NCBI GenBank assembly: GCA_964016885.1
Contig: OZ024743.1
Span: forward strand, 49,910,001-49,974,000
DNA: 64,000 bases
Direction: 5' to 3'
Source of the DNA: Eledone cirrhosa
Lineage: Eukaryota
Both the position numbers and the translations under genes were made by a program. Under the pieces are notes generated by a model that made no database searches, was not told where the DNA came from, and saw only the letters and a list, made by a program, of their open reading frames with translations. Below are positions 1,493-50,523 of this stretch, one piece after another (the stretch's first letter is position 1; each line of letters begins with the position of its first letter).

Positions 1493-1626
1493 GAATTAGC
1501 CGTCGAAACGGCTTGAGCTCAGCCGTCGGGGTCCTACTTGTTCCTATTACCCACTCTACTACCCTAAGTATTGAGTACTTTGGTGCGTTATGGTCCATCT
1601 GGTTCCTTACCACATCTCCTTCGTTA
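1493..1626 (+). mobile_element. Short Penelope-like terminal fragment carrying the 3' half of a hammerhead (family also at 13576-13687, 16971-17093, 57863-57998, 59643-59708)
   Basis: GAAA-CGGCT-TGAGCTC-AGCCG-TC-GGGG; five copies in the window, all adjoining (TA)n. Confidence 0.7.
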
Positions 1627-1851
1627 TATATATATATATATATATATATGTGTGTGTGTAAATATAAATGAAGTAATTCCGTCGGAAAAGTTCAGGAAAA
1701 AAGAGTGCTCTATGTAGGTAACTGGTAAATGGAATAATTGCCTTATGTTGTTTAATACATAACTATATATATATATATATTTATGTATATATATGTATAT
1801 ATATATATATATATATATGAATATATATATATATATATATATATATATGTG

Positions 1852-2230
1852 TGTGTAATAATATTGCCAGAATTAATAACAGAACACACTCACTGTTTGG
1901 TTGGTTTTCGCTTCTGTGTCTTTTATATCGGTTAATTTAATTTATTCGGTCCTCAATGTTGCCATTGACTGACCAACGGTAAAAAATACAGATACAATAT
2001 AGACACAAACACATATATATAGTCTAACAAAGTTCTTTCGTTGCACATCTGTAACATCGTCAGTGGTTTTATTATGTTTCCTCCTGTTGTATTGTATGCC
2101 TACGCCATCATTCAGTGTGTTCTGTTGTTAATTCTGGCAATATTATTACACAAATATGACCCTCCCCAAGTATAACAATATTTGTTTAGACACACGATTT
2201 CATATCAAAAACCTCGTAAAATTAATTCAT
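1852..2230. mobile_element. Inverted Penelope-like pseudo-LTR remnant with ORF N-terminus (MTLPKYNNICLDTRFHIKNLVKLIH from 2156)
   Basis: Inverted arms 1852-1890 / 2114-2152; 2156-2230 is homologous to 59527-59601, downstream of the GIY-YIG ORF. Confidence 0.7.
2026..2068 (-). ncRNA. Minimal type-I hammerhead ribozyme-like motif (degenerate stem I)
   Basis: Minus strand: AACCA CTGACGA T GTTACA-GATG-TGCAAC GAAA GAAC TT TGTT; shares the GAAAGAACTTTG segment with the motif at 59352. Confidence 0.6.
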
Positions 2231-2242
2231 CGCCGTTATATT

Positions 2243-2420
2243 GGATTGGCAGTATCGGTAGAGGGTCGGACGCCACGCTTTGACGCATAGTTACGGCCCT
2301 TGCCATTCTGAGTTCAAATCCCGCCGAGGTTAACTTTGCCTTTCATCTTTACGGGGTCGATAAAATGAAGTACCAGTAATGCACTGAGTAGTTGCTGGCC
2401 TTGTGCCAAAAGTAGAAACA
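2243..2420 (+). mobile_element. tRNA-derived SINE (central GTTAACTTTGCCTTTCATCCTTACGGGGTCGATAAAATAAAGTACC domain)
   Basis: A-box-like TGGCAGTATCGG, B-box GAGTTCAAATCC; many dispersed copies in the window. Confidence 0.85.
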
Positions 2421-2737
2421 GTTATATATATATATATATATAAATATTTTATCTATTACTCTCCATTATGTTTGCACCATTCTTCTATCAATGACATACT
2501 ACTATGTCTGTCTGTCTGTTCTATGTCTGTTAGACTGACTGTCTGTATGTCTGTCTGTCTCTCTGTCCGTGAGTCTGTCTGTGTGTCGTTGGTGGCAGTG
2601 ATAGAAGCACACTAATAAACAGCGAGTGAGAGTGAGTGATAGAGAGAGAGAGAGACTAATGACATGATAGACTATCTGGCTGTATGTCTTTCTGTTTGTC
2701 TTTGTGCCTGTCCGTCTTTATATGTGTTCCAATGTCA

Positions 2738-49504: not shown

Positions 49505-49578
49505 TATATACATACATACATGCATGCATACATACATAAACACACACACACGAGCGCGCACACACACACATACACATA

Positions 49579-49760
49579 TACAAGGGTCGGCTGAAAAGTT
49601 GATAGGCTGACAATGAAGGAGTGATGCTAGAGCTGTGAAATCGTGTATCTCTTTATTCATAACTACCTTGTTTCTTTCCAGGGACTGTGTTGAGAAACAA
49701 ATCTCATCTGTTCATTAGAGTATCTTGATCAGCTTACCAACTTCTCAGTTGACTCTCGTG
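49579..49760. mobile_element. ~180-bp mariner-type MITE
   Basis: Imperfect TIRs TACAAGGGTCGGCTGAAAAGTTGATAGGCTGA versus revcomp CACGAGAGTCAACTGAGAAGTTGGTAAGCTGA. Confidence 0.7.
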
Positions 49761-50125
49761 TGTATATATATATATATATATATAGTGGTAGAACACCGGG
49801 AGGTTATATCCGTAGTAAGTAGAGCACTCAATATATATATATTGGAAAATGTGTGAGATCCTTGGTACAGTTAGGTATATTTGAAAAAAAGGAAAAGAAT
49901 GACTTCACTTGTAGTGTTAAAACATTTTGGGGGATTTAATTTTATAATATTATAATATTATGAGTTGGTAGATCCAGTAAGATCTTTGTTAACTTCGGTG
50001 GGAAGAATTTTAGAGGTTCCTGGTTAACTTGGGTTGGAGAACTTTCTCGCATTCGTGTGTCTGTGTCGATTGTCAATTATAAAATAACAGGAAACTGGAC
50101 TGGTGTAATTCCTTATAAGTTTATT

Positions 50126-50183
50126 ATACTATGAACATTTCAATGACCGGGTTCAGTATGAATCCGGTGACATCATCAGGTAT
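50126..50183 (-). ncRNA. Complete type-I hammerhead ribozyme
   Basis: Minus strand: ATAC CTGATGA TGTC-ACCGG-A-TTCA-TAC-TGAA-C-CCGGT-CATT GAAA TG-TT-CA TA GTAT, then AATAAA. Confidence 0.8.
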
Positions 50184-50321
50184 TCCCAAATGTATCCAAC
50201 AAAGTAATATAATAATAGACACAATCCAAGGGGCTGAAAAACAGAGAGAGATGCACAAGACGCGAAGGCGGCCAAAAAGTAGCAGTTACTAGTCTGGGTG
50301 GCCGCCTTCAATGTATATATA

Positions 50322-50523
50322 TAGAAGTGGTTACACAACAGTTAGTTCACCATACCGAGAACGATTGTTTCACCTTAGCGGATCCGCGTAGCTGAGGATC
50401 CGCTAAGGTGAAACAATTCTTCTCGGTATGGTGAACTAACTGTTGTGTAACCACTTCTACCTAACTCGTCCCATAGACTGAGTGCTCTACCACTACGGAT
50501 ATTACCATCCAGTGTTCTACCAC
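50322..50523 (+). mobile_element. Fold-back Penelope-like terminal fragment with hammerhead core (CTGAGGA 50392-50398, GAAA 50410-50413)
   Basis: Arms 50322-50385 / 50396-50459; AG CTGAGGA TCC-GCTAA-GGT GAAA C; 3' tail related to 49785-49830. Confidence 0.7.

Follow-up and report, generated by a model that had tools for sequence, protein, structure and literature searches.

Why do otherwise dissimilar, hammerhead-bearing fragments share a GAGTRC motif near their ends? The question arose in a 64-kb stretch of DNA (the window, meaning the whole stretch analysed), about 28 kb of which is tandem repeat. A preliminary description had paired the motif with an upstream ACTC, placed it 40-55 nt before a terminal microsatellite, and proposed a conserved cis-acting RNA, either tied to initiation by reverse transcriptase (RT) or a tertiary partner of the ribozyme. 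Every site it listed was located: GAGTRC occurs on the plus strand at 1573, 1703, 13635, 13786, 16883, 35086, 35558 and 50480, with minus-strand copies starting at 13145, 17023 and 49829. The ACTC/GAGT pairing yields a hairpin at most of these positions, with a misplaced partner at 35086 and no ACTC for the copy at 49824. Several families are indeed distinct, but they number about six rather than 11 independent cases, because 1573, 13635 and 17018 belong to one family and 16883 and 35558 to another. The microsatellites at the ends are mostly TA tracts, except that the family at 13786 ends chiefly at (TC)n. An upper stem, a bulge, a second copy, a commoner GCUC/GAGC form and a connection to the Hydra clade of retroelements were all absent from that account.

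The order in full-length elements is hammerhead, HP1, HP2, ATG, where HP1 and HP2 are two copies of the hairpin, which usually occurs twice between hammerhead and start codon. HP1 of family A (1553..1578, plus strand) consists of ACUC, a 3-bp upper stem, a UU bulge and GAGUAC, and this copy (1492-1624) stops 6 nt before the expected start of HP2. Upstream of it, 1492..1545 (plus) is predicted from sequence to be the 3′ half of a hammerhead, with stem III, the cleavage triplet and the 3′ arm of stem I; full-length family A copies have the U3-A8 variant of the hammerhead core, a variant described in PMC4209133, and the entire ribozyme is found at locus L346. Family A also supplies HP1 at 13615..13640 (plus, copy 13576-13686) and at 17018..17043 (minus), the latter on a main arm (16972-17056) whose inverted arm (17054-17091) stops before HP1. 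The supposedly looser site at 1703 was read on the wrong strand: it is the reverse complement of an arm of a GAGCAC hairpin in a minus-strand family F copy, with the 3′ half of the hairpin at 1705-1710 in a main arm (1663..1722, minus) that stops just before HP2, and an inverted arm (1721..1762, plus) that stops just before HP1. HP1 of family E lies at 13140..13161 (minus), and its copy stops about 8 nt before HP2. Family B provides HP1 at 16868..16888 (plus; hammerhead core at 16803) and at 35543..35563 (plus), where the inverted arm (35408-35465) stops before HP1. In family C, HP1 occupies 35050..35091 (plus; UC bulge, hammerhead core at 34947), so that the partner of 35086 is the ACTC at 35050, with a 6-bp upper stem, and not the CACTT at 35076. 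Family D has HP1 at 50464..50485 (plus), with a 1-nt bulge, a hammerhead core at 50392 and an inverted arm (50322-50385) that stops before HP1, whereas the family-D-like HP1 at 49824..49829 (minus) is not a full hairpin, only the 3′ half remaining and a TA tract replacing the 5′ half with its ACTC.

Two further families bear on the layout. A GCUC/GAGC hairpin not listed previously was detected at 862..884 (plus; model search E 0.36); most copies of its family stop about 60 nt later, the copy at 770-1000 continues past that point to an imperfect hairpin at 956-975, and an imperfect HP2 was seen in 3 of 20 loci. This family spans 691-1000 and 1299-1490 and includes an inverted arm. An A-related family has its HP1 at 13767..13791 (plus) and ends mainly at (TC)n; no HP2 was seen, and there was no read-through copy among 30 loci. 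The (TC)n ends of this family (13716-13838; L408-L437) hint at an altered target or a UC-rich priming stretch.

By diagnostic motifs, on which the assignment rests while the protein tree holds Hydra-like sequences only, the motif-bearing fragments are the 3′ ends of Hydra-clade Penelope-like elements (PLEs). This clade is distinguished by RWK, DKT, a CxCx5C linker and the absence of CCHH (PMC8557442). Families A, B, C, D, E and others continue into ORFs with RWK/RWR and DKT: the N-terminal RW[KR] is present in families A, B, C, D, E and cl119 (RWI in cl50), R37 W38 is found in 50 of 51 relatives, and the ORFs carry the DKG to DKT change. A C-terminal GIY-YIG domain with a CxCx5C linker and without CCHH was joined to family A via its 3′ UTR, and the host elements combine a pseudo-LTR hammerhead (a predicted ribozyme) with insertion at (TA)n. 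A PLE protein encoded in this genome has its closest relative in Octopus vulgaris (70%), which points to a probable octopod host; no Hydra-like relative was found in viral contigs. A strict hammerhead finder returned only 39 sites and missed most motif families, and families were therefore defined by protein and ends. Rfam searches gave, apart from microsatellite-driven miRNA noise, a single tRNA-like match at 237-307 (minus strand; the only one to Rfam 15 at gathering score), which belongs to a tRNA-like repeat present as an inverted pair (161-300 and 504-643).

Other identities were considered and rejected: a non-LTR retrozyme (no coding capacity, tandem monomers), families A-F being ends of ORF-bearing elements; the window's own PLE ORF at 58032-59158 (family P) as owner of the motif, its ends lying elsewhere and without the motif; and a 5′ splice site within GAGT, the preceding bases not being GT. 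Among the elements themselves, intact 784-aa ORFs of family A occur in tandem arrays with units of about 3.5 kb (L323-L326 at 91.47-91.49 Mb, and others), where many identical scores suggest recent activity. Many family F copies (L283-L305) share the same sequence differences between the 3′ and the 5′ pseudo-LTR, and their 3′ ends terminate ahead of HP1. Hydra-clade PLEs in bacterial MAG contigs (L269-L280) are likely host DNA contamination.

Enrichment of the motif at a set distance from element ends was found in unselected genome. In 80 evenly spaced 10-kb stretches (800 kb, 1,215 TA-tract flanks), GAGTRC occurred 14, 30 and 18 times in the bins 40-49, 50-59 and 60-69 nt before TA tracts, compared with 0-7 in other bins, and neither its reverse complement nor one-mismatch variants peaked 40-69 nt before TA tracts in the same 800 kb. 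The excess shrinks after collapse to 654 clusters (7.2, 6.3 and 5.2 vs 1-6 in other bins), and GAGTG is the top 5-mer before TA tracts, with an uncorrected p=1.8e-4 that alone would fail correction. Throughout the 3.0-Gb genome, ACTC-N10-22-GAGTRC-N40-62-(TA)6 has 57,466 forward matches vs 734 and 3,450 for the reversed control, the reverse count of 300,779 for the composite pattern being inflated by sliding TA starts. Family A copies genome-wide stop at one exact position before (TA)n.

The element was next compared across other organisms, using loci chosen by protein alone. An alignment of 51 Hydra-like proteins led to 78 metagenome loci (from the best 80 of 377 confirmed) and 14 MAG loci; with 2 unrelated loci left out, these gave 90 loci in 75 families, 58 with usable flanks. 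In the flanks from these loci (the best 80 of 377 plus the MAG loci), GAGCAC was the top hexamer, present in 43 of 58 families (1.9 expected, 3 antisense), and RCTC lay within 45 nt of 99 of 112 GAGYRC instances. With the lower stem as the sole anchor, the next pair formed in 95/97 cases at a 2-nt bulge, compared with 2/99, 2/98, 13/97 and 33/93 at bulges of 0, 1, 3 and 4, and the bulge was UH (UU, UC or UA) in all 99 hairpins. The resulting consensus is RCUC-Y-stem-loop-stem-R-UH(bulge)-GAGYRC, with loops from a few to about 90 nt. Among families with a 5′ flank of at least 120 nt, 39 of 45 had at least one strict hairpin and 30 of 45 had two; several families lacking a strict match carry variants in which the outer pairs are U-A, the A-U pair is flipped or the tail is UC, such lower-stem variants being drawn from the model search (model built from 36 hairpins of similar length) and from reading of flanks.

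Base pairing in the hairpin has been maintained through sequence change. The first upper pair of HP1 is paired in 37/37, with six changes on the protein tree (49 sequences), all two-sided; pairs 2 and 3 are paired in 34/37 and 30/37. The upper stem of HP2 is weaker, pairs 2-3 being paired in only 12/19. Covariation exceeded 500/500 shuffles and every slid control, and the outer pair is seen as G-C, A-U and U-A. The ACUC/GAGU form originally noticed is a compensatory variant of the usual GCUC/GAGC, confined mainly to one clade in this genome, plus family D. Cells with G-U outnumber those with A-C by 16:3, which favours the sense strand, while pair probabilities did not separate sense from antisense (0.68 vs 0.70). 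Folding of the hairpins in isolation is weak (z between -0.4 and -1.9 across the seven originally described sites that were folded), and the minimum-energy fold of family A is an alternative one, not the hairpin; such marginal stability would fit stabilisation by a protein and is also a weakness.

The position of the hairpins relative to insertion ends proved equally constrained. Since ends fall just 5′ of a hairpin, HP2 was predicted beyond the usual end, and it was afterwards found 6-10 nt past that end in A, C, D, E, cl50, cl119, cl298 and cl26. The family E HP2 had 80 matches vs 0 in the control, and in family D the HP2 loop spans roughly 80-90 nt; for B, D and E, HP2 was counted with templates found via the known end. 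Three directed searches for a normal HP2 in family B were negative: its read-through copies (74 matches) have at that place a bare 4-bp GCAC/GUGC stem that lacks both bulge and upper stem, and the family nonetheless ends at this site. The distance of 40-55 nt initially reported is thus real, but it is the spacing between HP1 and HP2, because the end is marked by HP2, which stays outside the insert; the motif is not acting from 40-55 nt upstream.

Termini were mapped in 940 kb of genome taken without selection, using 13 natural templates (for the final count, template G was trimmed of its TA tract and cl119 limited to its element part). Of 175 mapped ends, 139 abutted TA, 34 did not and 2 were read-throughs. 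Among the TA-abutting ends, to which family A contributes 42, 127 lay 0-16 nt 5′ of HP1 (65) or HP2 (62), where 20 were expected, or 33.6 under a stricter leader-only TA null. Distances peaked at 6 and 8 nt (peak range 6-10 nt), at an A/U-rich stretch. For F, G and H, the templates identified solely by protein, 34 of 36 TA ends were in this 0-16 nt interval. Of the 34 non-TA ends overall, 16 were inside it (2.7 expected) and 18 outside, and 12 of the 139 TA-abutting ends also fell outside. The pattern was seen with each of the 13 templates, most weakly with B (7/13) and C (4/6). Head-to-head inverted pairs showed the same logic, 34 of 39 joining an HP1 end to an HP2 end; scored as mixed HP1+HP2 pairs this is 34/37 (p=6e-8). 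The terminus p-values overstate significance, since family A is heavily represented and individual copies cannot count as separate evolutionary events. Among 18 rows from other organisms, 8 gave informative junctions, all 7-13 nt before a hairpin (one distance judged by eye); 9 more reflected element-internal TA runs or were ambiguous, and the last (L211) was 55 nt from a hairpin. A fixed distance to an ATG directly after HP1 was rejected, the true ATG coming after HP2. Judged by covariation and end mapping together, the hairpin is a real, ancient and clade-wide RNA element sharply tied in position to both insertion ends.

What might such an element do? The conserved bulged hairpin, usually present twice in the Hydra-clade leader (pseudo-LTR), is a likely candidate for a binding site that positions the RT on its own RNA, and on the sequence evidence we consider this role probable. 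The original suggestion of a conserved cis-acting RNA tied to the RT start is upheld in its substance by covariation across distant families and by terminus mapping, while its geometry was wrong. We envisage that the protein would bind a hairpin on a read-through (tandem) transcript, that the element endonuclease would nick a (TA)n target, and that the freed DNA end would anneal immediately 5′ of the hairpin, to a short UA-rich stretch. Synthesis of cDNA would begin at this stretch, and because the start lies 5′ of the hairpin, the hairpin in use would not be copied. Use of HP2 would then leave HP1 within the insert, as in the fragments first described, and use of HP1 would give a short end, the length difference between the two corresponding to the known PLE 'tail'. 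A purified PLE, Poseidon PAc, initiates internally at two tail-defining sites and needs RNA 3′ of them (PMC11167929); internal start at two sites matches the hairpin-positioned priming proposed here. In rotifer PLEs the inverted arm is shorter than the direct arm, and the accessible text of the report gives no cause (PMC3846280).

Two extensions are more speculative. Both target strands could be primed by a protein dimer that engages HP1 and HP2, and the R-U-H-G-A bulge could be read in the manner of the TAR arginine sandwich by K28, R35 and R37-W38-K39; K28, R35, R37 and W38 are conserved in the N-terminus of the clade. Within TAR, a triple links U23 to A27-U38, with arginine contacts at G26 and G28 (Pham et al. 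2018, PMC6189040). The TAR-type layout (a bulged pyrimidine after a paired purine, then G-C and A-U pairs) is present in the hairpins, the A-U pair for the TAR-like triple being U-A or G-U in a few (L195, L272, L274 and HP2 of family B). Combined, two TAR-like hairpins would dock the halves of an RT-endonuclease dimer, each priming one cut (TA)n strand 6-10 nt upstream, a possibility that we put forward tentatively and rate at somewhat below even. A dual role, in translation as well as end placement, may also apply.

The same ends could in principle be cleavage points rather than start points, if the motif acted in DNA (duplex or single-stranded cDNA) and the endonuclease cut 6-10 nt away to resolve a longer intermediate. 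The nearly invariant lower-stem sequence would suit such a site, folding does not tell the strands apart, Craig et al. ascribe the tail to endonuclease-mediated resolution (PMC8557442), and the D. virilis endonuclease depends on the tail when acting on plasmid DNA (cited in PMC11167929). However, compensatory pairing and loops of a few to about 90 nt speak against a duplex site, the preponderance of G-U over A-C favours the RNA-sense strand, and in the single PLE purified the tail ends correspond to RT start sites (PMC11167929), making a DNA-level role unlikely. Still less probable is that the hairpins drive cap-independent translation of the ribozyme-cleaved RNA, with ends clustering via flanking UA-rich stretches. 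Their location between ribozyme and ATG, and a gap of 14-34 nt from HP2 to the ORF in most external families, agree with this idea, but within this genome HP2 and the ATG are anywhere from about 16 to 66 nt apart, whereas the ends peak at 6-10 nt, the ends exceed the leader-only TA null (127 vs 33.6), and the HP1+HP2 pairing of inverted arms is left unexplained.

A tertiary partner or regulator of the hammerhead, as initially suggested, gained no support, and neither this nor a degenerate hammerhead, reduced to stem I and the NUH triplet, seems at all probable. The hairpin is always downstream of the ribozyme, its R-U-H bulge resembles a cleavage triplet and ACUC/GAGU-like stem I arms occur in two Repbase Hydra ribozymes; yet there are two copies at variable spacing with no catalytic core inside, the termini are not accounted for, and family P has a hammerhead without the hairpin. 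Shared ancestry without function is the least credible reading of all. The restriction of the ACUC/GAGU form mostly to one clade of this genome's elements plus family D would be expected from it, but the hairpin is kept across 50 families with about 45-55% protein identity and flanks that cannot be aligned, and the repeated compensatory changes, together with the terminus data, contradict it. Positioning of the RT by the hairpin is the reading that we prefer.

Family P offers a view beyond the clade. Its ORF (58032-59158) has a CxxxxCxxC linker, of Neptune/Nematis type by motif, and none of its 28 pseudo-LTR stretches (19 loci) overlapped a match to the Hydra-type hairpin model at E<=5, presence across PLEs in general being judged on this one non-Hydra family. 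Family P, without the Hydra-type hairpin, may use a different signal. It is abundant (58032-59606; L142), with about 20,000 candidate matches and intact ORFs of >1,000 aa, and it has two ends about 62 nt apart inside the ORF start, both followed by ATATCG in the template. At 57863-59606 a chimera was observed, in which a family A piece with an inverted arm passes, within HP1, into thumb-endonuclease sequence from family P; this joining of two PLE clades perhaps reflects a template switch or insertion at short homology. The window also contains a repeat of about 600 nt flanked by (CATA)n, at 14833-15094, 26835-27863, 46248-47306, 48092-49501 and 55940-56135. It includes GAGTRC (14854, 27478, 47159, 48115 and 55956 on the plus strand; 27015, 46364 and 49489 on the minus strand) and short ACTC/GAGT palindromes near its ends, which lack the UH bulge and have no model match.

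At issue is how PLEs choose start sites and why they bear a tail and inverted ends; biochemical work, confined so far to a single study, located the starts and not the signal. The hairpin presents a covarying motif of 25-40 nt at a fixed offset to >50,000 genomic ends, testable by shifting or mutating it, and it bears on the RTs closest to telomerase. It can serve as a sequence tag for annotating Hydra-clade ends and true boundaries, and it suggests a compact handle for RNA-templated insertion. If the dimer docking is true, it would account for the PLE tail and the head-to-head inverted ends, a telomerase-sister RT would have a defined template-positioning RNA element, and any RNA 5′ of such a hairpin could be written into (TA)n sites.

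As far as literature searches reach, the hairpin element is new, and its sequence record strongly suggests a function. The leader hairpin is undescribed in the accessible text of PMC11167929, PMC8557442, PMC4209133, PMC7229834, PMC6189040, PMC3846280, PMC13282606 and bioRxiv 10.64898/2026.07.22.740005, while subscription papers, Repbase reports and figures could hold it. The elements agree with the Hydra clade of Craig et al. 2021 (PMC8557442) in RWK, DKT, the CxCx5C linker and the lack of CCHH, as well as in an ORF of about 700 aa, the hammerhead, (TA)n targeting, inverted 5′ arms and the tail; they differ in the leader hairpin, which the accessible text of that article does not mention. By eye, the six consensi examined in its supplement show the hairpin in Hydra-2_Amil and Hydra-2_Ajap, twice in Hydra-1_Ajap and imperfectly in Hydra-1_Crog; it is not clear in the other two. 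With Poseidon PAc (Frangieh et al. 2024, PMC11167929) the system shares two internal starts that bracket the tail, a requirement for RNA 3′ of them, an AT-rich target, extension of both strands and a predicted dimer. The PAc sites lie within the ORF, in an AC-rich stem-loop, with no conserved binding motif defined in the accessible text, whereas here a duplicated, covarying hairpin sits in the leader; PAc was compared by description, and it may possess a similar hairpin. The arginine sandwich of HIV TAR and 7SK has the same purine, bulged U and then paired G and A (PMC6189040). The present hairpins depart from TAR in having the opposite connectivity, the loop lying at the other side, in the 2-nt length of the bulge and in an additional conserved RC-U tail, and no homology is claimed. 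Cis-acting RNAs that recruit an RT and fix its start include LINE/R2 3′ UTR structures, hepadnaviral epsilon and the template-flanking elements of telomerase RNA. Those signals are single and remain part of the copied RNA or sit at its end, whereas Hydra-clade leaders have two, each marking one end, and the one in use would lie outside the insert.
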